From an uncultured bacterium (GTDB taxonomy: Bacteria; Fidelibacterota; Marinisomatia; Marinisomatales; J089), in contig CAZHTM010000003.1 of assembly GCA_964535735.1 (NCBI GenBank), positions 2,092 to 66,091 of the forward strand: a stretch of DNA of 64,000 bases, given 5' to 3'. How positions within the stretch are numbered: position 1 is the stretch's first letter; each line of letters opens with the position of its first letter. Shown in pieces: positions 4,557 to 24,975 of the stretch. The notes beneath the pieces are model-generated. The model did no database searches and was not told where the DNA came from. It saw only the letters and a list, made by a program, of their open reading frames with translations. Made by a program: the position numbers and the translations under genes.

Positions 4557-5147
4557 ATGAGTAAATTTTCAAAATATACACTCGCCCTGGCATCGCTGCT
4601 GCTGCTCTTGATGTATATTTTTCCTATCTGGTCCATCACCCTGGAAGCGCCTCAGTATCCGGAAGGATTGGGAATGTATATTTGGGCCAACGATATCACT
4701 GGACATCAACCTCATGATTTAAAGAATATCAATCTGGTAAACCACTATATTGGTATGCAGGATATTAATCCTGATTCGTTTCCCGAGTTGAAATACATAC
4801 CCTATATTATTGCAGTGCTCATTATAACCGGACTTGGTATTGCATTTAAAGGAAATAAAAAATTCATCGTTTTCTGGCTCGCAACATTTATCATTTTATC
4901 GTTAATCGGACTTATTGATTTCTACCAATGGAATTATACCTATGGACATAATCTTGATCTGGAACATGCGGCAATTAAAATTCCCAATATGTCCTATCAG
5001 CCACCGCTCTTTGGACGGAAAACTCTGCTGAATTTCGTGGCGTATTCCTATCCTGCGCTTGGTGGGATTGCGGCATTTCTGTCGCTCTTCTTAGGGATGG
5101 TCGCGGCCTATGTAGAATTTCGTAAACCGAAGGAAACCGTTCAATGA
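4557..5147 (+). CDS. polytopic membrane protein of clade II nos clusters (NosB-like), function unknown
   Basis: About 4 hydrophobic segments. Located between nosZ and nosL and overlaps nosL by 4 nt. No catalytic motif recognised. Confidence 0.5.
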   Translation: MSKFSKYTLALASLLLLLMYIFPIWSITLEAPQYPEGLGMYIWANDITGHQPHDLKNINLVNHYIGMQDINPDSFPELKYIPYIIAVLIITGLGIAFKGNKKFIVFWLATFIILSLIGLIDFYQWNYTYGHNLDLEHAAIKIPNMSYQPPLFGRKTLLNFVAYSYPALGGIAAFLSLFLGMVAAYVEFRKPKETVQ

Positions 5148-15267: not shown

Positions 15268-18200
15268 TTACTTCAAGAGCATCATTTTCCGAGTGAATCC
15301 ATAGGTCCCCGATTCCATCCGTACCAGATACATTCCACTGGGGAATTCTCGCGCATCCCACTGAATCGTGTAGCGGCCCGCCGGGCGATAATCATCCACC
15401 AGGGTCACCACAACTTCACCCAGAAGGTTATGAACCGTGACCTTAACCTGATTTGCTTCAGGCAAATCAAAACTCAAGGTCGTGACTGGGTTAAACGGAT
15501 TGGGATAATTCTGGGACAAGGCGTAAGAATCCGGAACATTTAGCGTCGGATCGGTGGACAGAACCGTGGCGTCGGCTTCGTTGGACGGAGCGCTTTCGTT
15601 TCCGTTGAAATCAACCGCTGTTACCACATAGTAATAGATTTGTCCAGGCTCCAACGCCTGATCCACAAACGAGGTGTCCACGGTATATCCGTAGGGTTCG
15701 TCACTGGGTAGTACGCCCGGAGCCGTTCCCCTATAAATCGTGTAGTAATCGAAATCCTCATCCTCAATACTTTCCCAGTTCAGCATAACCAACGTGCCTG
15801 GATCAGAATAGTAAGAGGCCGTCAAGTTTTGGGGAACCGAAGGAATGAGATTATCTACGGAATACCCTGATTCAGGTTCGGAGTCGAAGAACAGGTCTGG
15901 AACCATAGTATGAGCCGTCACCACAAAGGTAGTCCAATACTCTCCCGTGCTGCTGGTCGTGGCATTAGAATCCACCAACGTGGGTGCTACAAAGGAATAG
16001 ACATCCATACCATGGTATGGAACAGTGGTGATGAAATCCCATACGGGTCCTGAATCGTTCTCGGTCATGCGCCAGATACTGAATTGCTGCCAGGTTCCGA
16101 ACCAAGCGGGATTTCCCGGTTCCCAAGTGACACGCACTTGTCGACCCTGATCGTTCGGTACATCGGTGATGGACAGGATTTCTGGCGGAGTCACCTCAAA
16201 ATGGTCCAGGTAGATATCCAGCCACAATGTGTCACCGATAGCCAAGTACACGTCATCTTCGGAAGGTTCATATTCTGGCGCCATGGTAAATACATGGAAG
16301 GAATCGGCAGGCACTTCCAAGTAAAATTCGCCATTTTCATCGGTAAAGGTCATGAATTGATAGGTTTCGTTTGCCACGATCACATTCGCCCCCCAGATCG
16401 GGAATTCTTCTTCCGCATCCCGGACAACGCCTTCCAAAACGGCCTGAGGTTCAAAGGAAACGAGGTAGAAATTCAGGGTTGTATCCGGATGGAATTCATT
16501 CAATTCCAGGTCAAAGGCGAAGTCAGCTCCATATCCCTCCTTCCAGGCTTGGGCTGCATAGTGGCCGTAAGGAACTGGTATACTGTAATGGCCATCCATA
16601 TCGGTATAGGTCATATCCCAGTACATGTCTCCGAATACCATTACCTGAGCCTCCATAACCGGCATTCCGCTGGTCTCATCCAAAACAAAACCAGAGATAA
16701 GTCCGTCAAATGATAAAGGATTCAAGTAGATATCCAAAGTGGCTACATTATCTTGTATTACAATGAGAGTATCCAATTGGATATTTTCGTATCCATCACC
16801 ACCGGCTTCGACAAAATAGGCACCGTTGGGCAGAGGGAGGTAATAATATCCCTGTTGATCGGTACCCCATCCGAAGTCAACAAAGTCATTGTAAACATGT
16901 ACCCAACCGTGAGAGACCGGTATATTAGTCGTGGCATCATAAACAATACCTTCTAAACCACCCAGCATTTGCTGCACTACAAAATCAGCGTGCATTTCAC
17001 CAGAAAGAACATTTTCCGGATTTTCTATGACCAGAAAATCATGAGGGATAAAATCCCAAATCCAGAGCCAATATCCTCCTATTGGATCAGCGGCAGAACT
17101 CACATTCAAGGTATACCAACCGGCCGAGTCGGTTCTGGCTTGGGTCCAGCCCAACTCACTCCAAGCGCCGATATTTATTCCGGGCCATGGTCCATCGTTC
17201 AAGGTTACATGTCCCGAAATTTGCGCGTCGGTCACATAGGCAGTTAATTCCACAAAAACCGAATCATAGTCATCCAAATATTCCCATACTTCATTGGGGA
17301 CTAAATAATCCGGTAGTAAACCAAATTGATCGGCTTCGATCCGCCATTCTCCAGGAGGGACAGGAATATGGAAATAACCATTGGCATCGGTAATACCTTC
17401 AAAACCGGGTTCATAATTTCCATCGATCCAAATATTAACGTCGGGAATGGGTGCCATAGACTCATCTCGAAGCACACCGGCAATCACTGAATGGGGTTCG
17501 CTGAAAGTGAAATCGTATCCGGTCTCATGCCCCTGGACATCAATGTCAAAATAGATGGTGTCCGGGATTAGTCCACCGGTGACACCCAGAAAATCAAAAG
17601 CGGCCACAACAAATAGCCCTGTATCCGGAAGGAAAATATGATATGCTCCCGTGGTATCGGTGCTGGCTCCCCAGACTAAAGGATCAGACAGGGTGTCTGT
17701 ATCCAGAGAATCCCAGGGAAAGGCCATAACCAAAATATGAGATAACTCGGGACTTACCGTACCGGAAATTGAGTAATCGCTCACGATCGGTTCAATATGG
17801 ACGCTGGCAATGTCATATCCCCCTGCCCATCCCATAACTTCCATGAGGAACGTGATATTCGAAAACCGTTGAGGGCTTTCCTCATCCTCATCTGAAATGG
17901 TCCATTGATATACTCCAACCTGAGGGTCTTCGTCTTCCGGACCATTATCCATGATATGCCCGGGATTATCAACGTTCCAATCCTCTTCGGGTTCAAGGGT
18001 CCCATTATCGTTCATGTCCACCCAGACCTGAAGATCGGCCTCTGAACTTCCATCGGGAAATGTGATACGAATCTGCATAGAGTCCCCTACGGTTATCGTA
18101 TCGGCCTCGACGCCATTGATTGTGATACTCAGAGAATCTGTCAATGGATTATAAAGTTGTTGACTTACCTGTAAAAGTTCATCATGTCGAAATGATTTAT

Positions 18201-18522
18201 TAGAAAATAATGTCTTATCAATAGAACGCCATATTTTATGCGCCGGTAACTTTTTCGGCTCATGCTTAGAGGCATGTTTTAACTGGTACAACGATTCCAT
18301 TCTATCCCGGTTGATATATTTTACATTTTCTGGCGGGGATATACGATTTTTACGAATTTGAATGACTTGTTCAATATCAGATTGCGATAATCCTGGTGAG
18401 TCAGTCTGAGATGTTGTCACTTGGTTTTGATTCGCTGAAAAGGCAATGGTTAAGCCCAGAGATAACAAAACCGTGGTAACCCATTTCCCAGAATTCTTAG
18501 TGATGAGATTTGTAAAGTTCAT
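15268..18522 (-). CDS. large secreted repeat protein with T9SS C-terminal sorting domain
   Basis: Start at the ATG at 18522, with AGGAG upstream. Signal peptide. Several carboxypeptidase-regulatory-like repeats (SGxV..D....P...A.V.....TD..G.Y pattern). An FN3-like segment. C-terminal YALSQNYPNPFNP...MYLVRM...KMMLLK Por/T9SS tail. Confidence 0.8.
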   Translation of the reverse strand: MNFTNLITKNSGKWVTTVLLSLGLTIAFSANQNQVTTSQTDSPGLSQSDIEQVIQIRKNRISPPENVKYINRDRMESLYQLKHASKHEPKKLPAHKIWRSIDKTLFSNKSFRHDELLQVSQQLYNPLTDSLSITINGVEADTITVGDSMQIRITFPDGSSEADLQVWVDMNDNGTLEPEEDWNVDNPGHIMDNGPEDEDPQVGVYQWTISDEDEESPQRFSNITFLMEVMGWAGGYDIASVHIEPIVSDYSISGTVSPELSHILVMAFPWDSLDTDTLSDPLVWGASTDTTGAYHIFLPDTGLFVVAAFDFLGVTGGLIPDTIYFDIDVQGHETGYDFTFSEPHSVIAGVLRDESMAPIPDVNIWIDGNYEPGFEGITDANGYFHIPVPPGEWRIEADQFGLLPDYLVPNEVWEYLDDYDSVFVELTAYVTDAQISGHVTLNDGPWPGINIGAWSELGWTQARTDSAGWYTLNVSSAADPIGGYWLWIWDFIPHDFLVIENPENVLSGEMHADFVVQQMLGGLEGIVYDATTNIPVSHGWVHVYNDFVDFGWGTDQQGYYYLPLPNGAYFVEAGGDGYENIQLDTLIVIQDNVATLDIYLNPLSFDGLISGFVLDETSGMPVMEAQVMVFGDMYWDMTYTDMDGHYSIPVPYGHYAAQAWKEGYGADFAFDLELNEFHPDTTLNFYLVSFEPQAVLEGVVRDAEEEFPIWGANVIVANETYQFMTFTDENGEFYLEVPADSFHVFTMAPEYEPSEDDVYLAIGDTLWLDIYLDHFEVTPPEILSITDVPNDQGRQVRVTWEPGNPAWFGTWQQFSIWRMTENDSGPVWDFITTVPYHGMDVYSFVAPTLVDSNATTSSTGEYWTTFVVTAHTMVPDLFFDSEPESGYSVDNLIPSVPQNLTASYYSDPGTLVMLNWESIEDEDFDYYTIYRGTAPGVLPSDEPYGYTVDTSFVDQALEPGQIYYYVVTAVDFNGNESAPSNEADATVLSTDPTLNVPDSYALSQNYPNPFNPVTTLSFDLPEANQVKVTVHNLLGEVVVTLVDDYRPAGRYTIQWDAREFPSGMYLVRMESGTYGFTRKMMLLK

Positions 18523-18623
18523 AACCACTCTCCTTTGGATTGTTGGCACGATATAGACAACGAAAAGTAGTAGATTAAACAAATCCGCCGTGTGATCCTG
18601 CTCACGGGTTGGATTATCGATGA

Positions 18624-18875
18624 TTATAGAGAATCGATGAAACGCGCCAGTTGAATATCTCGATCGGTAATTCCACCCTGATTATGGGTGGTCAGTACAA
18701 CTTTCACGGTGTTAGAAGTCAGGGTCTTGTCGGGATAAGGATTTTACCGTTCCGCCTCCCGAGGCACGGTATTCACAAGATCCAACCCGGATTGATAGGA
18801 AAGAAATTCCAATGTCATTACCAAACAATTATCCTGGACCGACCCTTCCACCAGGGACTGTATTGCGGTCAACAT
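18624..18875 (-). pseudogene. pterin-4a-carbinolamine dehydratase (PCD/DCoH)-like gene with an in-frame TAA and a lost His-His motif
   Basis: Hand translation of the minus strand: MLTAIQSLVEGSVQDNCLVMTLEFLSYQSGLDLVNTVPREAER*NPYPDKTLTSNTVKVVLTTHNQGGITDRDIQLARFIDSL*. The stop is at 18744-18746. PCD scaffold spacing is kept, but the catalytic HHP reads PYP. Confidence 0.6.
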
Positions 18876-18893: not shown

Positions 18894-20249
18894 CTATTGC
18901 CTTACACTAACCAACACCATTTGCCGGAATATTCGTCGGACCCAGACCACCCCTACAGCCGTAGCGACTAATGTGGACATCATCATTGAGTACCATACCC
19001 ATTCCAAGGGCTTATGCAGAATAAAAGCGAAAAAACTAGCCAAAGGCGCCGATACAAGAAGGATTCGGATGGAGGTTATGGCCAAAACCGGTATCCCTTT
19101 CCCAAACCCTTGTAAGATCCTTCCACTGGTAATACCGATCGCTACCACAGGATAAACCAACGTAATGAGTCGCAAGTAGGTTATGGCAATCTGTTGAACT
19201 CCGACAGAAGGTGTAAATCCTGTCACCAGTATAGGAGCCAGTATAAAAATCAAAAGAGATGACAGTACCGTAATCAGAAAAGAACGTCCATAACCATATT
19301 TAACAATCATCTTCAGTTTTTCGATTTCATTAGCGCCGTAGAACATTCCCACAAGCGTCGTAAGAGCTGCACCGATGGACATGATTGGCAAAAGGACCAG
19401 CATATCGATGCGGCCGCTGATTTGATAGGCCGCAACAGTATCCTGAGAAAAGGAAATCAGAATTCGGTTAAATACACCCTGACCAATGGACATAATGATC
19501 ATGGATAATGATGCGGGAATTCCAACACGGAAAATATCTTTGATGATACCCATATCCGGATGGAAATGCTGGATTTTAAAGGAGATGTAAGAATGTTTTT
19601 TCACATATAACATATAGAAGAAAATAGAAAACGAAACGATTTGACTGATGATTGTGGCTACGGCTGCGCCGGGTACACCCATATCAAGAAGAAAAATAAA
19701 GATTGGATCCAAAATAATATTGAGAACCGTTCCCAGCCCGGCTACCATCATAGGAAATTTTGTATCACCCTCGCCCGCAAGAATGGACCGGAAAAAGCCC
19801 GAAAAAATCATAAATGGCAATCCCCAACTGATAATCCGAAGATAGGACCAGGATAAGGGGATTAACTCCTGCGGAGTACCCAGGCCCTGGAGCATCTGGG
19901 GACCAAAAAGGAGTCCACTGAGCATTAAGGGTATTCCAATAACAAGACCCAGAACTACAGCATGTTCGGCACCGTTATCGGCATTAATTTTATCCCGAGC
20001 GCCGACATACCGCGCCACCGTGGCCGTCACTCCCGTTCCCAATCCCATGGTCAACCCCATGACGAAAAAGAATAGGGGCATATTGAATGCCACGGCGGCA
20101 ATGGCATCGCCTCCCAACCAGCCAATGAAGATAATATCCACGACCGTATACATGGTGTGAATTCCCATACCGATCATGATCGGTATAGCCAGGGTCCATA
20201 ACGCCTTTCGGGGAGCGTTTAGATAGGTGTCCAGTCGAGAACTTTTCAT
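18894..20249 (-). CDS. MATE family efflux transporter
   Basis: 12 TM segments. N-terminal MATE pattern ALWTLAIPIMIGMGIHTMYTVVDIIFIGWLGGDAIAAVA. Confidence 0.85.
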   Translation of the reverse strand: MKSSRLDTYLNAPRKALWTLAIPIMIGMGIHTMYTVVDIIFIGWLGGDAIAAVAFNMPLFFFVMGLTMGLGTGVTATVARYVGARDKINADNGAEHAVVLGLVIGIPLMLSGLLFGPQMLQGLGTPQELIPLSWSYLRIISWGLPFMIFSGFFRSILAGEGDTKFPMMVAGLGTVLNIILDPIFIFLLDMGVPGAAVATIISQIVSFSIFFYMLYVKKHSYISFKIQHFHPDMGIIKDIFRVGIPASLSMIIMSIGQGVFNRILISFSQDTVAAYQISGRIDMLVLLPIMSIGAALTTLVGMFYGANEIEKLKMIVKYGYGRSFLITVLSSLLIFILAPILVTGFTPSVGVQQIAITYLRLITLVYPVVAIGITSGRILQGFGKGIPVLAITSIRILLVSAPLASFFAFILHKPLEWVWYSMMMSTLVATAVGVVWVRRIFRQMVLVSVRQ

Positions 20250-20337
20250 GAATCTCCAAAAATAAAGCGGGTAATATAGCTCGACCGAACCAGACTATTG
20301 ATGACTTTTCTCCGAAACTCGGAGATCATTATCCGGC

Positions 20338-20559
20338 TCAGGAAAAGCCTGAAGATGCGGAACAGCCGCTCGTCGAGGATGAATAAGAACTGGAGGAAGA
20401 ACTTCCTCCTACAGATACCGCCGGCGCTGACAGTAGGCGCCGGGAGCGATGTTCCCCGCATTTCGGACAGGTAATGTCTTCATCCGGTACAGTACTGGAC
20501 CAAACCAGTTCCTCAAATTCGTGTCCACAATTATCGCAGCGATAATCGAACATGGGCAT
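20338..20559 (-). CDS. FmdB-type zinc-ribbon protein (CxxC...CxxC) with Ser-rich tail
   Basis: MPMFDYRCDNCGHEFE...ITCPKCGE signature. Tail GGSSSSSSYSSSTSGCSASS. Confidence 0.8.
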   Translation of the reverse strand: MPMFDYRCDNCGHEFEELVWSSTVPDEDITCPKCGEHRSRRLLSAPAVSVGGSSSSSSYSSSTSGCSASSGFS

Positions 20560-20598
20560 AAGGCTAAATCTCCCTTAAACTACTAAAGGTTTAATCAG

Positions 20599-20832
20599 TT
20601 ATTGACCAGACTCTGGATCACCGGTTTGCTTTTTTCGTCCCGGAAGCGCCCAGATCAACCCCATGAGAGCCCCGTAGGCCGTGCTGTTGACAGGATTTCC
20701 TGTAATGGCACACGTCCCGGTGCGACAACCAATCAGCGCATAGTATCCCCAGCCAAGAAAAGCGCCCAGCACTATTCCTAACAGAGGACCTCGCCACCAT
20801 CCCGGTTGATGATAAAATCGAGGCTTACTCAT
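20599..20832 (-). CDS. small two-TM membrane protein with GCRTGTCAITGNP motif (DUF6132-like)
   Basis: Two hydrophobic helices flank a C-x4-C loop. Overlaps the upstream gene by 8 nt. Confidence 0.55.
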   Translation of the reverse strand: MSKPRFYHQPGWWRGPLLGIVLGAFLGWGYYALIGCRTGTCAITGNPVNSTAYGALMGLIWALPGRKKQTGDPESGQ

Positions 20833-21031
20833 GATTGGAGTTCAAACGTTGGTTCAGATCAGCGATGATATCATCCAAATTGGTAATCTTCTTCCGTTCG
20901 GCTAATTCTTCCAGGGTACCCCACAACGGTTCCCCACATTTTACACAAGCCAGCCCAGCTTCAGCCAATGGAGCAATGACTTCTGGATAATCTCGGACGA
21001 TATCTTCGATGAACATGGTTTTATCAATCAT
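20825..21031 (-). CDS. DUF1858-type redox-disulfide domain protein (hybrid-cluster-protein-associated family)
   Basis: 68 aa. Pattern TMFIEDIVRDYPEVIAPLAEAGLACVKCGEPLWGTLEE with a CxxC pair. Confidence 0.7.
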   Translation of the reverse strand: MIDKTMFIEDIVRDYPEVIAPLAEAGLACVKCGEPLWGTLEELAERKKITNLDDIIADLNQRLNSNHE

Positions 21032-21372
21032 GACAAGCCACTCTCATCCAAGGGATGCAACAAGTTCTTAAAATAATCCCGAGCTGCTTCAGCCGCTGTA
21101 ATACGCCCACCCATGTGCATGATACGCACTTTCCAATGGGCCGCAATTTTCCGCGCATGATCGCCTACATGATGAACAATCATCGCCTCTGGCATAGCAT
21201 CCGGTTTCAGGGTTTTAAAAATTCGTCCATGATGCACCTCCGGTGTTCCCGGAATGGCGTCTAGTAAGACACCTTCCTTGTCCAGGAAAAGATACCAGGA
21301 CGCACGGCCAAAATGGGAACCGGCAGGTTGCTCTGGATCAGGATATTCAGAAGGGATAAGTACGCTTGACAT
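21028..21372 (-). CDS. NifX/NifB-C-terminal-like cofactor-binding domain protein
   Basis: SHFGRASWYLFLD core motif of the dinitrogenase FeMo-cofactor-binding fold. 9 His and no Cys. Confidence 0.6.
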   Translation of the reverse strand: MSSVLIPSEYPDPEQPAGSHFGRASWYLFLDKEGVLLDAIPGTPEVHHGRIFKTLKPDAMPEAMIVHHVGDHARKIAAHWKVRIMHMGGRITAAEAARDYFKNLLHPLDESGLS

Positions 21373-21620
21373 TAGATAATCCTTTTCAGGTTTAGTTTTT
21401 TAAATAATCGGTCCGACACATCGTCCGGAATACTTTCTTCCGTCTGGGTGACCCGATAGAGTTTGATGGTATCCTTGACACTATCTATAAAAATCCGACA
21501 CTCCGGGCATTCTTCCATGTATTTTCGCACTTCATCCACTACTTCCCGTTCATAATCTTCTCCCAGGTAGTCTTCAACCAGACGAATCATTTTTTCTTTA
21601 TGGTTCAAGAATGCATTCAT
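21372..21620 (-). CDS. putative cytoplasmic anti-sigma factor (zf-HC2-like, His replaced by Tyr)
   Basis: Overlaps the ECF sigma stop (ATGA). The pattern LVEDYLGEDYEREVVDEVRKYMEECPECR matches the anti-sigma N-terminal zinc-finger layout. No TM segment. Confidence 0.6.
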   Translation of the reverse strand: MNAFLNHKEKMIRLVEDYLGEDYEREVVDEVRKYMEECPECRIFIDSVKDTIKLYRVTQTEESIPDDVSDRLFKKLNLKRII

Positions 21621-22219
21621 GATAGTCCCTCAATGCACTTAAAATGATTGGCCAATTGGTCCCTTAAGAATAACCGGGCGCGCATCAATCTGACTTTGGT
21701 ATTGGCTTCGGAAATATTCAACAACTTAGCCGTTTCCCGCGTGGAAAGATTTTCCAAGTCCCGAAGGACAAATACGTCTTTATAATTTTCTGGTAACAAC
21801 GCCATAGCTTTGGCTAGACAATCCCGAAATTCTTTTTCATCAATTTTTTCTTCCAGGTGGTCGGGCCAGTCTTTGATATCAAATCCCCGCACATGTTCAA
21901 ATTCCGGATCATGAACAGAGATATAATTGTCCACATATTTCTTCTGGCGAAGTTTCCCCAGCGCCACGTTGGTGGCAATTCGGTATAACCAGGTATAAAG
22001 CGAGGACCGCTCGGAAAAAGTATCCAATTTTTTCAGCATAATCATAAAGGTTTCCTGAAGTACGTCCTCTGCATCCTCTCGATTATCCATTAATCGGCTG
22101 GCCAATGAGTAAATCCGTGCAGAATGCATATCTACAAGAATACTCATAGCATCTGCGTCACCCTCTTTGGCGCGCCGAATAAGTTCTGACTCTGGTATGT
22201 CCTGATTTGGAACCGTCAT
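21617..22219 (-). CDS. ECF (sigma-70 family, group 4) RNA polymerase sigma factor
   Basis: Region 2 (DAEDVLQETFMIMLKKL...YTWLYRIATNVAL) and region 4 (LPENYKDVFVLRDLENLSTRETAKLLNISEANTKVRLMRARLFLR). Confidence 0.9.
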   Translation of the reverse strand: MTVPNQDIPESELIRRAKEGDADAMSILVDMHSARIYSLASRLMDNREDAEDVLQETFMIMLKKLDTFSERSSLYTWLYRIATNVALGKLRQKKYVDNYISVHDPEFEHVRGFDIKDWPDHLEEKIDEKEFRDCLAKAMALLPENYKDVFVLRDLENLSTRETAKLLNISEANTKVRLMRARLFLRDQLANHFKCIEGLS

Positions 22220-22240: not shown

Positions 22241-22260
22241 GGACCCCTTTGCAGGGGTCC
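22241..22260 (-). terminator. stem-loop downstream of the DUF4920 gene, upstream of the ECF operon
   Basis: ggacccct ttgc aggggtcc, a perfect 8-bp GC-rich stem. Weak U-tract on the minus strand (ugguuuau). Confidence 0.4.
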
Positions 22261-22303
22261 TTGGCTCAGTTCAATTGGATGAATATTCAAAGGTTTGGTT
22301 ACA

Positions 22304-22726
22304 TCAACTTTCAATGATCACACCACTTGCAATCATGGAATAGTTTGCCCGATCCTGTTCCGTACAGGACTCGCTGTGGTTCCCTTCTTCATGGTTATGT
22401 TTTATCACTTCGGTATGGAAGACGCCTTGAACCTTTACCGTCTTACCGCCGGCATCCTTGGGAACAAAGAACGCATAATCCTTAAAGCGAACCAAAAGGG
22501 TTTTCCCGTCGGCTTCCATAGATAACCAACATCCTTTTTCCTGACAGATTTCTTTTATAACGCCAGATACCAATATTTCTTTGGCATTGTATTGATCAGG
22601 ATGGTTCAGAACCTCCTGTACCTGAACTGCCTGATCCAAGGTTGGCGCTTCACCAAATACTTTCCCCCGTTCTTGTTGAGAACAGGCCATGAGGACAATC
22701 ACCATTGCCCACAGCACATGTTTCAT
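22304..22726 (-). CDS. DUF4920-like lipoprotein
   Basis: Start at the ATG at 22726 (ATGA overlap with the upstream gene). Lipobox LMAC. Core motif KEICQEKGCWLSMEADGKTLLVRFKDYAFFVPKD. Confidence 0.6.
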   Translation of the reverse strand: MKHVLWAMVIVLMACSQQERGKVFGEAPTLDQAVQVQEVLNHPDQYNAKEILVSGVIKEICQEKGCWLSMEADGKTLLVRFKDYAFFVPKDAGGKTVKVQGVFHTEVIKHNHEEGNHSESCTEQDRANYSMIASGVIIES

Positions 22727-23130
22727 TTGATTAGTCTCCTTTTTTTTGTCACAACAATAAACATCCAAATTCCCGTAATACTCAATATGCCTAAAGCCAA
22801 AGCCACTAAATCGTAATACAGAACTCCCGCTTCTCCAAATAAATCTCCTGAATGAAGGTCATATACAATCCAGGATAAAGGAACATACAACGTATTATTT
22901 GTAGGTAGTTTTTGTGCAGCCCGGGTTGCCAAAAGGCGATCGGTGTACTGGGTCGGTAACCATTTGGCCGGGATGCGACTGGTTTGCAGGAAATGAAAAT
23001 CGTTCTTATGCTCTAGTAATATCCCTGTTAGAGCAATAACAAATATAAACAGGGCTGATACCACGGTCAGCCAACGGAAATATCCTAGAATATTACGGTG
23101 CCAGATTCGCCAAGTTTTTAAAGACGCCAT
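22723..23130 (-). CDS. PepSY-associated TM-helix membrane protein
   Basis: WHRNILGYFRWLTVVSALFIFVIALTGILL and LHSGDLFGEAGVLYYDLVALALGILSITGIWMF patterns. Confidence 0.55.
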   Translation of the reverse strand: MASLKTWRIWHRNILGYFRWLTVVSALFIFVIALTGILLEHKNDFHFLQTSRIPAKWLPTQYTDRLLATRAAQKLPTNNTLYVPLSWIVYDLHSGDLFGEAGVLYYDLVALALGILSITGIWMFIVVTKKRRLIK

Positions 23131-23181: not shown

Positions 23182-24975
23182 CTAAAAAGGCCAAAAAACA
23201 GGCAATAAAATTGAAGCCATGATCCACAGGACAAACGCCAAAGGAAATCCAATTTTCAGGTAGTCGGAAAATTTATAGCCCCCCGGACCAAAAACCATCA
23301 TATTGGTTTGGTATCCTATGGGAGTTACAAAAGATGCGGAAGCGGCAAAACACACGGCAAAAATAAATGGTCGTGGATTGACCCCGAGGGCCGTGGCGGC
23401 CACTAAGGCAATAGGAGTCATAATAATCGCCGTCACTACATTGGAAGCCATCTCCGTGAGAATAACCGTTACCAAATAAACAAGGGCCAGAAGTAAATGG
23501 GGTTGCCAATTAACGGGGAATTTTCCCGTAATATCGGACAGAATCGTACCCAACGCGTGAGCCGTTCCCGTAGATTGAATGGCGAAACCCATGGGAATCA
23601 TGCTGGCAATTAATATAATCACCTGCCAATGAATCGACGCATAAGCTTCATTGGAGCCCAGCACCCGGAAAACCATGAGAAGAATCACCCCGATCAAGGC
23701 GCCTTCCACGATGGGCACCCACTGGAAGGCGGCCAGAATGACCACAGTGATAATGACAATGGGACTCAGCCACCAGTATCGGATTTTTTTCAAATCCGCA
23801 TCCATTTCCGCCATAACAATGAAATCATCACCCATGGCCAATTCATTCACTTTACTCCGTGATCCATACACCAATAGGGTATCGAAAGGTCGAATAATGG
23901 CGTGAGCGACTTTTCGGCGAAGGATATCCCCTTCCCGACGGATCGCCAAAACAAAACTCCCAAATCGACGTCGGAAGTTGGACTCCTTCAAACTCTTCCC
24001 TACTAAAGTGGATTTATCCGTTACGATGCATTCAATTAATACATTATCCGCCTGGACCAATTCTTTTTGGGTAAGTTTTTCATCCGTAAGGAGGGCAACT
24101 TTTTCAATGTCTTTCATTCGAATAAAATTATCCACGGTTCCGCGAACGAACAGGATATCACCTTCTTTTAGAATCGTGTTCCGAATGTTCGTGGTAATCA
24201 ATTCGTTATTCCTCTGGATGTCCAAAACGGTAATGTCATAGTTCTGGTTGATGCCTCGCTCTAGAATGGTTTTCCCGATTAACGGAGAATCTGCCGTCAC
24301 TTTCATTTCCGTTAAATACCCACCTAGATGGTAATTCCGGGTCAGACTTGAGGTTACGGTCCGGGAAGGGAGGAGCCGGTATCCAATAAACATAATGTAC
24401 ATTAGACCCAACACCAGTTGAATCAGCCCATACCGGGCGAATTCAAACATTCGCAGGGGCTCTAACTGGGACAATTCACCCAAAAGGGAATTCACTACTA
24501 AATTGGTGGACGTTCCAATCAAGGTAAGGGTACCACCGAGAATTGCAGCGTAACTCAAAGGAATTAACACTTTAGAGGGACTGATACGATACCGTTCCGC
24601 GAGCCGGATGGTCACCGGCATAAATATGGCCACTATGGCGGTATTATTGACGAATGCTGATGCAACCGCAATGGAAAGCAAATAGACCATCAGTCCCAAC
24701 ACTTTTGAATGTTGGACCAATTGATTGAGCCGAATGACCAGGTATTCCAGAACACCAGACTTCTGGAGCGCATGGCTCAGGATAAACAGCGCAGCAATAG
24801 TAATCACCGCCGGGTTTGAAAATCCGGATATAGCCTGTTCCGGGTTGACCAAGCCAGTGATCAGCAGAATTCCTAAAACCAATAATGCTGTCACATCGAT
24901 GGGCAACGCCTCCGTAACAAAGAGGACAAAAGCCATCAAAATGACGGCAAGAACGATGATCATTCCGATGGTCAT
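23182..24975 (-). CDS. SLC13/DASS-family anion transporter with two central TrkA-C (RCK_C) domains
   Basis: N- and C-terminal permease halves. Two approximately 70-aa RCK_C-like inserts (GKTILERGINQNYDITVLDIQR..., GKSLKESNFRRRFGSFVLAIRREG...). Confidence 0.8.
   Translation of the reverse strand: MTIGMIIVLAVILMAFVLFVTEALPIDVTALLVLGILLITGLVNPEQAISGFSNPAVITIAALFILSHALQKSGVLEYLVIRLNQLVQHSKVLGLMVYLLSIAVASAFVNNTAIVAIFMPVTIRLAERYRISPSKVLIPLSYAAILGGTLTLIGTSTNLVVNSLLGELSQLEPLRMFEFARYGLIQLVLGLMYIMFIGYRLLPSRTVTSSLTRNYHLGGYLTEMKVTADSPLIGKTILERGINQNYDITVLDIQRNNELITTNIRNTILKEGDILFVRGTVDNFIRMKDIEKVALLTDEKLTQKELVQADNVLIECIVTDKSTLVGKSLKESNFRRRFGSFVLAIRREGDILRRKVAHAIIRPFDTLLVYGSRSKVNELAMGDDFIVMAEMDADLKKIRYWWLSPIVIITVVILAAFQWVPIVEGALIGVILLMVFRVLGSNEAYASIHWQVIILIASMIPMGFAIQSTGTAHALGTILSDITGKFPVNWQPHLLLALVYLVTVILTEMASNVVTAIIMTPIALVAATALGVNPRPFIFAVCFAASASFVTPIGYQTNMMVFGPGGYKFSDYLKIGFPLAFVLWIMASILLPVFWPF

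Follow-up and report, generated by a model that had tools for sequence, protein, structure and literature searches.

A conserved trio of ECF sigma factor, small soluble anti-sigma-like protein and NifX-fold protein within a variable operon of uncultured Fidelibacterota

This work concerns an operon headed by the gene for a sigma factor of the extracytoplasmic function (ECF) type on a 64-kb stretch of DNA from an uncultured marine Marinimicrobia (Fidelibacterota) bacterium, hereafter referred to as the window. A comparison covering ten lineages, including relatives of the window operon, reveals that the conserved core of the system is a trio consisting of the ECF sigma factor, a soluble anti-sigma protein of about 80 amino acids (aa) and a His-rich protein of the NifX fold, and that the operon in the window is a reduced variant, without the thioredoxin, rhodanese and DUF302 genes found in relatives. 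We consider it fairly probable, judging from sequence and gene order, that the trio is a cytoplasmic thiol switch similar to SigR-RsrA with a NifX-like protein as an additional third component, and that its output would serve the handling of thiols, sulfur or metals.

The six genes, in the order of transcription, are as follows:

21617-22219, minus strand: ECF sigma factor, 200 aa
21372-21620, minus strand: anti-sigma-like protein, 82 aa
21028-21372, minus strand: NifX-like protein, 114 aa
20825-21031, minus strand: DUF1858 protein, 68 aa
20599-20832, minus strand: protein with two transmembrane (TM) segments (DUF6132), 77 aa
20338-20559, minus strand: FmdB-family zinc ribbon protein, 73 aa

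The first five genes overlap, by 4 nt (ATGA) between sigma and anti-sigma, 1 nt (TAATG) between anti-sigma and NifX-like, 4 nt (ATGA) between NifX-like and DUF1858 and 8 nt (ATGAGTAA) between DUF1858 and DUF6132, and a gap of 39 nt with an AAGGGAG ribosome-binding site inside it precedes the FmdB gene. A first-pass annotation had described these six minus-strand open reading frames together with their overlaps, the gap and a hairpin past the last gene, and all of them were found where it had placed them. Its domain calls for the six proteins were upheld by domain scans, with three scoring below the curated cut-offs, and it was also correct in reporting nine His and no Cys in the NifX-like protein, the KYMEECPEC motif of the anti-sigma and the motif GCRTGTCAITGNP of the two-TM protein. 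The label "Cys/His-rich" was overstated, Cys and His together making up only 3.5-4.4% of the residues in four of the six proteins, mostly as one Cys pair each.

Searches with the NifX-like, DUF6132 and anti-sigma proteins each returned five to six close matches from Fidelibacterota, and a scan of genome contigs with the NifX-like alignment led to the same three metagenome-assembled genomes (MAGs). A metagenome scan yielded two loci: L014, which proved decisive, and L015, an ordinary NifX-like/DUF134 cluster without bearing on the operon. The closest relatives (71-86% identity) also share the HD-GYP, CitMHS, PepSY_TM, DUF4920, MATE and pterin-4a genes and the gene of a protein secreted by the type IX secretion system (T9SS); because synteny reaches this far beyond the operon, function and synteny are inseparable in these genomes and they are uninformative. 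The more distant loci, with the identity of their NifX-like protein to that of the window and their gene order, are:

L014, 47% (tblastn): sigma, anti-sigma, NifX-like, DUF1858, rhodanese, DUF6132, DUF302, FmdB, MATE, pterin-4a
L017, 46%: the order of L014, preceded by an additional thioredoxin gene
L028, 41%: thioredoxin, sigma, anti-sigma, NifX-like, DUF6132, DUF302, FmdB, MATE; neither DUF1858 nor rhodanese
L021, 32%: thioredoxin, sigma, anti-sigma, NifX-like; flanks wholly different
L031, 22%: sigma, anti-sigma, NifX-like, flanked by lptD and by an M3 peptidase gene in convergent orientation
L016, 31%: anti-sigma, NifX-like, followed by unrelated genes; the locus begins within the anti-sigma gene and the upstream region lies outside it

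The trio thus occurs in at least four contexts without common flanks (the CitMHS-syntenic clade, L021, L031 and L016). In every context the anti-sigma gene either overlaps the NifX-like gene or directly abuts it, and the NifX-like gene adjoins the sigma/anti-sigma pair in every sigma-linked relative. Given that only the sigma/anti-sigma/NifX-like trio recurs outside the syntenic clade, the sextet is not a unit, and the proposal of the first-pass annotation that the six genes form a self-contained module is not supported: L028 carries no DUF1858 gene, and the window lacks genes that its relatives have. No thioredoxin gene is found in or beside the window operon.

The sequence of the sigma factor places it unambiguously among the ECF (group 4) sigma factors, with regions 2 and 4 only and neither region 3 nor region 1.1. 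This is supported by matches to Sigma70_r2 (64 bits, residues 28-94), Sigma70_r4_2 (57 bits, residues 133-185) and TIGR02937 (99 bits against a cut-off of 42.9). Its nearest solved relative is SigW of Bacillus subtilis (E 2.8e-25), followed by RpoE.

The 82-aa protein is best described, as far as its sequence indicates, as a class I anti-sigma domain derived from the zinc-binding anti-sigma (ZAS) lineage, in which the canonical zinc site appears to be dispensable and the CxxC motif does not. Its best NCBIfam match is the RsrA model TIGR03988 (E 1.9e-4, 21.5 bits against a cut-off of 62.5). The Pfam scan gave no zf-HC2 match for the window protein; such matches were obtained for 4 of the 11 members of the anti-sigma family, among proteins with His at the ligand position, the L014 protein scoring 21.5 bits against a cut-off of 22.2. 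A profile built from the 11 sequences retrieved a single protein from the PDB, the cytoplasmic domain of RsiW (E 0.033), and in that alignment the Y/H-x3-C-x2-C of the family falls on the H-x3-C-x2-C of RsiW; a narrower alignment retrieved nothing meaningful from the PDB, RsiW being reached only with the wider one. The AlphaFold2 (AF2) monomer model, with a predicted local distance difference test (pLDDT) score of 58, was too poor for a fold search. The alignment with RsiW, the zf-HC2 matches and the H-x3-C-x2-C motif of four lineages support the earlier assignment of the operon to a cytoplasmic ZAS-like anti-sigma.

In the window protein the motif reads Y34-x3-C38-x2-C41, which departs from the canonical zinc-ligand pattern H-x3-C-x2-C. 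The CPxC is invariant in all 11 sequences, and position 34 across the ten lineages is His in four, Tyr in five (the window among them) and Phe in one. Three layouts can be distinguished. In the first (L002, L014, L017 and L028) an N-terminal His and H-x3-C-x2-C form an HHCC site that resembles ChrR-type sites; in the second (the window, L011 and L020) Tyr replaces the His, with L011 and L020 having no N-terminal His and the window retaining His7, so that this His is missing from two of the three Tyr lineages whose N-terminus is complete; and in the third (L021, L031 and L016) Tyr or Phe is accompanied by two extra Cys, giving four Cys. The window protein is highly charged, without any hydrophobic stretch or TM segment, and all family members are soluble. 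The anti-sigma gene is directly coupled to the sigma gene in all nine related lineages in which the upstream region is present.

The fold of the third protein is confirmed by structure modelling as that of NifX/NafY. Pfam PF02579 (Nitro_FeMo-Co) matches it below threshold (E 0.029, 15.1 bits against a cut-off of 26.3), and a profile search of the PDB retrieves TM1816 (E 1.8e-4). The AF2 model is of good quality (pLDDT 88.4, predicted template-modelling score 0.83), and its top 11 Foldseek matches are all NifX-fold proteins (TM1290, TM1816, PH0822, ORP, NafY, MTH1175 and NifX) with template-modelling scores of 0.64-0.76, the small NifX/NafY-fold proteins and ORP having E values of 8e-7 to 1e-5 and template-modelling scores of 0.66-0.76. 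The subfamily members P0022, P0021 and P0023 match PF02579 and pass its threshold (29.1 bits). Together with the fold, the small proteins TM1290, TM1816, PH0822 and MTH1175 as well as ORP have the N-terminal HFGRA motif in common with the subfamily described here. The latter differs from other small NifX/NafY-fold proteins in being rare, His-rich and often Cys/His-tailed, and it is linked to ECF sigma/anti-sigma genes rather than to nif genes, DUF134 or Mrp-type ATPases; the usual DUF134 context is seen in L015. No nif gene is present in any neighbourhood examined. Of the 1.84 billion cluster representatives covered by a full HMMER scan, only 11 belong to the NifX-like subfamily at E<=1e-3, and all named homologues come from MAGs of Fidelibacterota (Marinimicrobia) or of the "FCB group" (Fibrobacteres-Chlorobi-Bacteroidetes), which together indicate that the system is rare and lineage-restricted.

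The subfamily has three conserved His (H48, H68 and H72). More distant members end in C-terminal tails such as HACKTHVH, HDCNGHVH, CGGNCGH, CGDVCHH, DHHHHH and HQHDYGTQTHDH, and the window protein has no tail. Tails of the CGGxCxH type co-occur with the four-Cys anti-sigmas, in one clade only, which hints at co-evolution of the ligands. A paralogue of the NifX-like protein, P0022 (29% identity to the window protein, C-terminal DHHHHH), is encoded at the end of a ZnuA-ZnuB (ABC-3) operon, 9 nt after ZnuB, at 3742-5798 of L022 and also in L023 and L024; no ABC ATPase gene is visible in the L022 cluster, and a 338-aa protein without assignment is encoded upstream.

The genes that follow the trio encode small proteins of quite different kinds. 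The DUF1858 protein scores just above the cut-off of PF08984 (32.8 against 32.2 bits) and has the motif C-x2-C-G-E-P-x-W-G, with its C-x2-C-G-E-P part invariant in six relatives; against solved structures it gave weak matches to uncharacterised proteins only. The two-TM protein falls marginally below the cut-off of DUF6132 (PF19628; 22.8 against 23.2 bits) and has 45.7% identity, over 60% of its length, to a RefSeq "DUF6132 family protein". Between its hydrophobic segments lies G-C-x3/4-G-x-C-x-I-T-G/S-x-P, the core of which, G-C-x3/4-G-x-C-x-I-T, recurs in nine sequences; a search for a solved relative found none. The FmdB assignment is unambiguous (Zn_ribbon_8, PF09723, 57 bits against 34.4; TIGR02605, 62.3 bits against 31.3). 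The protein has CxxC...CPxC, a Ser-rich tail and a conserved C-terminal C...SGFS, and its poly-Ser tail is a hallmark of the family, the model being named CxxC_CxxC_SSSS.

In relatives the operon additionally encodes thioredoxin, DUF302 and a rhodanese that is anchored N-terminally and has CRSGNRS as its active-site loop, and the redox or thiol theme suggested in the first-pass annotation gains support from the presence of these three genes in the same operon. DUF302 has also been reported in sox clusters (PMC5037610) and, along with rhodaneses and a sulfur dioxygenase, in a module regulated by a CsoR-family protein (PMC6305408).

Several smaller observations concern these cargo genes. At 1809-3447 of L008 a cassette without a sigma gene consists of overlapping genes for a rhodanese, DUF6132, a YgaP-like TM protein, DUF302 and a thioredoxin, from which it follows that part of the ECF cargo of the relatives exists as an independent module. 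On the Riemerella anatipestifer plasmid NZ_CP081938.1 (L027, 5684-6159), a DUF6132 gene lies 3 nt after a heavy-metal-associated (HMA) domain gene and divergent from a TonB-dependent receptor gene, an arrangement reminiscent of MerP with a small Mer-type membrane protein. A micro-ORF of 28-30 aa without annotation, encoding one hydrophobic helix and the conserved C-terminus P-[KR]-x-G-V-P-T, is found at the stop codon of DUF302, overlapping it or within 1 nt, in L014 (9543-9632), L017 (8540-8632) and L028 (7989-8075); the window has no counterpart of it.

Four further features of the window bear on the transcription of the operon:

22275..22303, minus strand: putative autoregulated ECF promoter TGTAACC-N16-CATCCAA, from the alignment of upstream regions
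22241..22260, minus strand: GC-rich hairpin GGACCCCT-GCAA-AGGGGTCC, past the putative promoter and before the start codon of the sigma gene
20309-20325, minus strand: 7-bp hairpin TCTCCGA-GTT-TCGGAGA, 13 nt past the FmdB stop codon, no T-run after it
18894-20249, minus strand: MATE efflux transporter, 451 aa (MatE, 193 bits)

Upstream of the first operon gene the loci have the consensus TGTAAC[C/A/T]-N16-[C/G/T]ATC[C/A/T]AA (equivalent to TGTAAC-N17-ATCnAA). It is present once in each locus that contains the upstream region of the first gene and always at that position, that is, before the sigma gene where this gene comes first and before the thioredoxin gene where thioredoxin comes first (L017, L021 and L028). 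For its 11 specified bases, about 0.1 chance matches would be expected in the approximately 280 kb of DNA compared, and in the window the motif is the sole match in 64 kb, even when one mismatch is allowed. Its -35-like TGTAAC begins one base past the DUF4920 stop codon. Where thioredoxin comes first, the leader is a normal one: 22-25 nt separate the -10-like element from an ATG that has GGAG or AAGGAA in front of it. The RpoE promoter is GGAACTT-N16-TCAAA and the SigW consensus is TGAAAC-N16-CGTA; the architecture of both resembles that of the motif, and the SigW promoter has, as here, an AAC-containing -35 element, a spacing of about 16 nt and a short -10 element. We contend that the TGTAAC motif is probably the sigma factor's own autoregulated promoter, the regulation being presumably positive. 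A second promoter before the FmdB or MATE gene was considered and rejected, there being no other match in the window at that tolerance. A looser match, GTAAC-N16-ATCAAA at 24887-24914 on the plus strand, differs in spacing, is not preceded by TG, falls in antisense orientation within the 5' part of a CitMHS/TrkA_C gene and is probably due to chance; it is also present in the near-identical loci L005-L007.

The hairpin at 22241-22260 folds at -25 kcal/mol, and hairpins with different stems are located at the same position in L011 (about 1520-1552) and L002 (about 4648-4678). Such leader hairpins are seen only in variants with DUF4920 directly upstream and in none of the thioredoxin-first variants. 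In the window it probably terminates the DUF4920 operon that lies upstream, and the ECF transcript would have to pass through this terminator; it could also be a structure of the 5' leader or an attenuator.

At the other end of the operon, the MATE gene lies on the same strand, 88 nt past FmdB. The promoter/terminator scan and the motif scan found neither a terminator-like site nor a promoter motif in this gap, and the nearest terminator call (20392-20409) falls within the FmdB coding sequence. MATE is situated directly 3' of FmdB in every full-length variant, including L028 despite its different downstream flank. Given its distance of 88 nt on the same strand without a canonical terminator, the transcription unit may extend past FmdB, and the MATE gene is possibly its last gene. 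L002, L001, L014 and L017 likewise have a hairpin at the position of the one after FmdB, with different, compensating stems; this positional recurrence in four relatives led us to reject the view that it is a chance feature, and a 3' end or a site of processing ahead of MATE may be located there. Neither the conserved promoter nor the downstream MATE gene nor the metal-related contexts of paralogues had been included in the first-pass annotation.

The regulatory cycle that we propose is as follows. Homology and gene order suggest that in the resting state the anti-sigma would sequester the sigma factor. A thiol-reactive cue, most likely an oxidant or a reactive sulfur species and possibly a thiophilic metal, would modify the CxxC of the anti-sigma or disturb its metal site, which may be shared with the NifX-like partner. 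The freed sigma factor would then transcribe the operon from TGTAACC-N16-CATCCAA, the motif obtained by phylogenetic footprinting. In the window the predicted output comprises the CxxC-containing DUF1858 protein, the membrane protein DUF6132 with its CxxxxC, the FmdB zinc ribbon and probably the MATE exporter, to which thioredoxin, rhodanese and DUF302 would be added in relatives. With thioredoxin as the first induced gene, the switch in these relatives would be reset by a feedback loop of the SigR-RsrA-TrxBA type.

In a small number of model bacteria the workings of ECF sigma factors that are paired with cytoplasmic ZAS anti-sigmas are well known. The closest parallel in logic is SigR-RsrA of Streptomyces coelicolor, an ECF12-type switch for thiol-oxidative stress, in which likewise a short soluble anti-sigma of the ZAS lineage directly follows an autoregulated ECF sigma factor and the reductant that resets the sensor is itself induced through a trxBA feedback loop. 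The x3-C-x2-C helix motif is common to both, RsrA provides the best NCBIfam match of the 82-aa protein, and the thioredoxin-first relatives L017, L021 and L028 mirror the trxBA logic. However, the window protein scores far under the RsrA cut-off and is not a member of that equivalog, it has Tyr for the His ligand and no equivalent of RsrA Cys11, and the sigma factor is nearer to SigW/RpoE than to SigR/SigH. Furthermore, a NifX-like third protein is always present here, and the host belongs to Fidelibacterota and not to Actinobacteria, without any mycothiol context.

By sequence, SigW-RsiW of B. subtilis is the nearest system, with respect to both the sigma factor and the anti-sigma profile. 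RsiW is a membrane protein from which the sigma factor is freed by regulated proteolysis, first by PrsW and then by RasP; given that the 82-aa protein has no TM segment or extracytoplasmic domain, envelope proteolytic signalling of the RsiW type is excluded. The cargo of the relatives can in turn be compared with sulfur cassettes of the rhodanese/YgaP and CstR types, since DUF6132, DUF302, rhodanese and thioredoxin also occur in the ECF operons of relatives. Those cassettes, however, are, where their control is known, under ArsR/CsoR-type repressors and not under an ECF sigma factor, and the window operon keeps only DUF6132 of that set.

Several points weigh against a thiol switch of this kind. 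The anti-sigma assignment draws on similarities below threshold, the AF2 model of the protein (pLDDT 58) is unusable, and the window anti-sigma is without the canonical His; with thioredoxin, rhodanese and DUF302 absent as well, the case for a thiol or sulfur output is weakest in the window itself. The co-occurrence of DUF1858, DUF6132, FmdB and MATE within the syntenic clade is inseparable from vertical inheritance. In addition, the strong leader hairpin separates the window promoter from the sigma gene, and in L014 (7115-7144) the -10-like GATCTAA abuts the annotated sigma start codon, an awkward leader that implies either a leaderless transcript or a different start. Finally, a metal signal would agree at least as well with some of the clues, namely the paralogue linked to ZnuAB, the Cys/His tails and the pairing of HMA with DUF6132.

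The last point leads to the alternative of an ECF system for metal homeostasis, which we regard as possible if on the whole doubtful. According to this alternative, the system would follow the logic of CnrH-CnrY-CnrX from Cupriavidus metallidurans: the NifX-like protein would bind Zn, Ni, Co, Cu or a metal-sulfide species and signal to the anti-sigma, and the Cys pair of DUF6132, the FmdB ribbon and the MATE exporter would traffic or buffer the metal. The Cnr system also has a three-gene core with a metal-binding, His-rich third protein and a very small anti-sigma, and a similar logic is conceivable in view of the metal-type tails in the NifX-like subfamily and of its occurrence beside Znu genes. 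Yet CnrX is periplasmic and CnrY spans the membrane, whereas all three proteins appear to be cytoplasmic here; CnrX has no kinship in sequence or fold to NifX, and CnrH is a distant match to the sigma factor (E 1.5e-6). Besides the Cys/His tails of distant NifX-like members, the P0022 paralogue that closes a ZnuA-ZnuB operon and the DUF6132 gene 3 nt after an HMA gene on Riemerella plasmids, a metal role finds favour in the presence of ORP, with its Mo-Cu-S cluster, among the structurally closest proteins, in the pairing of CGGxCxH tails with four-Cys anti-sigmas and in the DUF4920 lipoprotein and PepSY_TM-like genes just upstream. However, the window NifX-like protein has neither tail nor Cys, and the correlation between tails and Cys patterns comes from one clade and may reflect phylogeny alone. 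No P-type ATPase, CDF or RND exporter or metal-sensor domain is encoded in any operon examined, and the thioredoxin, rhodanese and DUF302 of the relatives suggest sulfur or thiol chemistry over metal export.

It could also be argued that the locus is a plain sigma/anti-sigma pair, with the four to five small genes downstream being passengers kept by synteny in one narrow lineage. The close homologues do come from few Fidelibacterota MAGs with syntenic flanks (HD-GYP, CitMHS, MATE and pterin-4a), and the accessory gene content differs among lineages. Nevertheless, the NifX-like gene keeps its place beside the anti-sigma gene in three contexts whose flanks are entirely different and where identity is 22-32%, the overlapping start and stop codons are maintained, the sole promoter motif precedes the whole block and shifts upstream of the added thioredoxin gene, and DUF6132 and DUF302 co-occur independently in the L008 cassette; we therefore find this explanation improbable.

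A role in nitrosative stress or Fe-S repair, as proposed in the first-pass annotation, with a DUF1858 protein acting in the manner of the N-terminal domain of RIC/ScdA or of the redox domain associated with hybrid cluster protein and a NifX-like protein carrying a repair cluster, is very unlikely: it can call upon the similarity of the DUF1858 protein to TIGR03980, the "hybrid cluster protein-associated redox disulfide domain" (39.7 bits), and to ScdA (E 0.009, aligned to residues 1-62 of the 224-position model), and on the NifX fold, which in nitrogenase assembly binds Fe-S-based cofactors, but both similarities are below curated cut-offs (44.95 in the case of TIGR03980), the 68-aa protein does not contain the di-iron hemerythrin-like C-terminal domain of RIC/ScdA, no hemerythrin-like di-iron domain, hcp, nor or nitric oxide sensor gene is present in any locus examined, DUF1858 is dispensable (not present in L028, L021 and L031), and the window NifX-like protein has no Cys.

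Returning to the thiol switch, the part played by its NifX-like component invites a bolder proposal, namely that cytoplasmic ECF systems with three components form a new class in which this protein provides the input by binding a ligand and decides on the release of the sigma factor. We put this forward tentatively and think it rather unlikely to hold as stated. The His cluster and the Cys/His tail would bind a metal or a metal-sulfur species that is exchanged with the CxxC of the anti-sigma, and a ZAS derivative that hands its metal site over to a NifX-like partner would account for the replacement of His by Tyr or Phe.

Small NifX-like proteins are common in bacteria that do not fix nitrogen, and we know of no role assigned to them there. 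Their conserved link to a sigma/anti-sigma switch makes the function of such orphan proteins testable, and should the protein prove to be the sensor, the NifX-like domain, a widespread orphan, would gain its first role in regulation beyond nitrogenase assembly; failing that, the known principles of ECF signalling are unchanged. The literature searched, with partial coverage, contained no description of an ECF system with an obligatory NifX-fold partner and DUF6132, DUF302 and DUF1858 as cargo, and these domains are likewise absent from the main text of the ECF reclassification paper. The variable cargo ties DUF6132, DUF302 and DUF1858 to thiol or sulfur chemistry via thioredoxin and rhodanese. 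Marinimicrobia (Fidelibacterota) are uncultured and globally abundant, with sulfidic and deep-sea habitats among those they occupy, and the promoter motif could be used to predict which genes belong to the regulon in MAGs and metatranscriptomes.

Some neighbouring features of the window deserve mention. Upstream of the operon (22304-23130, minus strand) an overlapping gene pair encodes a DUF4920 lipoprotein (signal LMAC; motif C-QEKG-C) and a PepSY_TM-like membrane protein; this pair and a thioredoxin gene never both precede the sigma gene in relatives. Downstream, a remnant of a pterin-4a-carbinolamine dehydratase gene (18627-18743, minus strand; phmmer E 1.1e-4 against the L014 protein) sits between the MATE gene and a gene for a large T9SS protein, and this copy appears to be decayed because L001, L002, L014 and L017 keep an intact Pterin_4a at the same place. 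The large protein (15268-18582, minus strand) is a secreted protein of 1104 aa that, according to the Pfam annotation of its orthologues, has CarboxypepD_reg-like repeats and, at the C-terminus, a T9SS (Por_Secre_tail) sorting domain, which fits a host of the FCB group.

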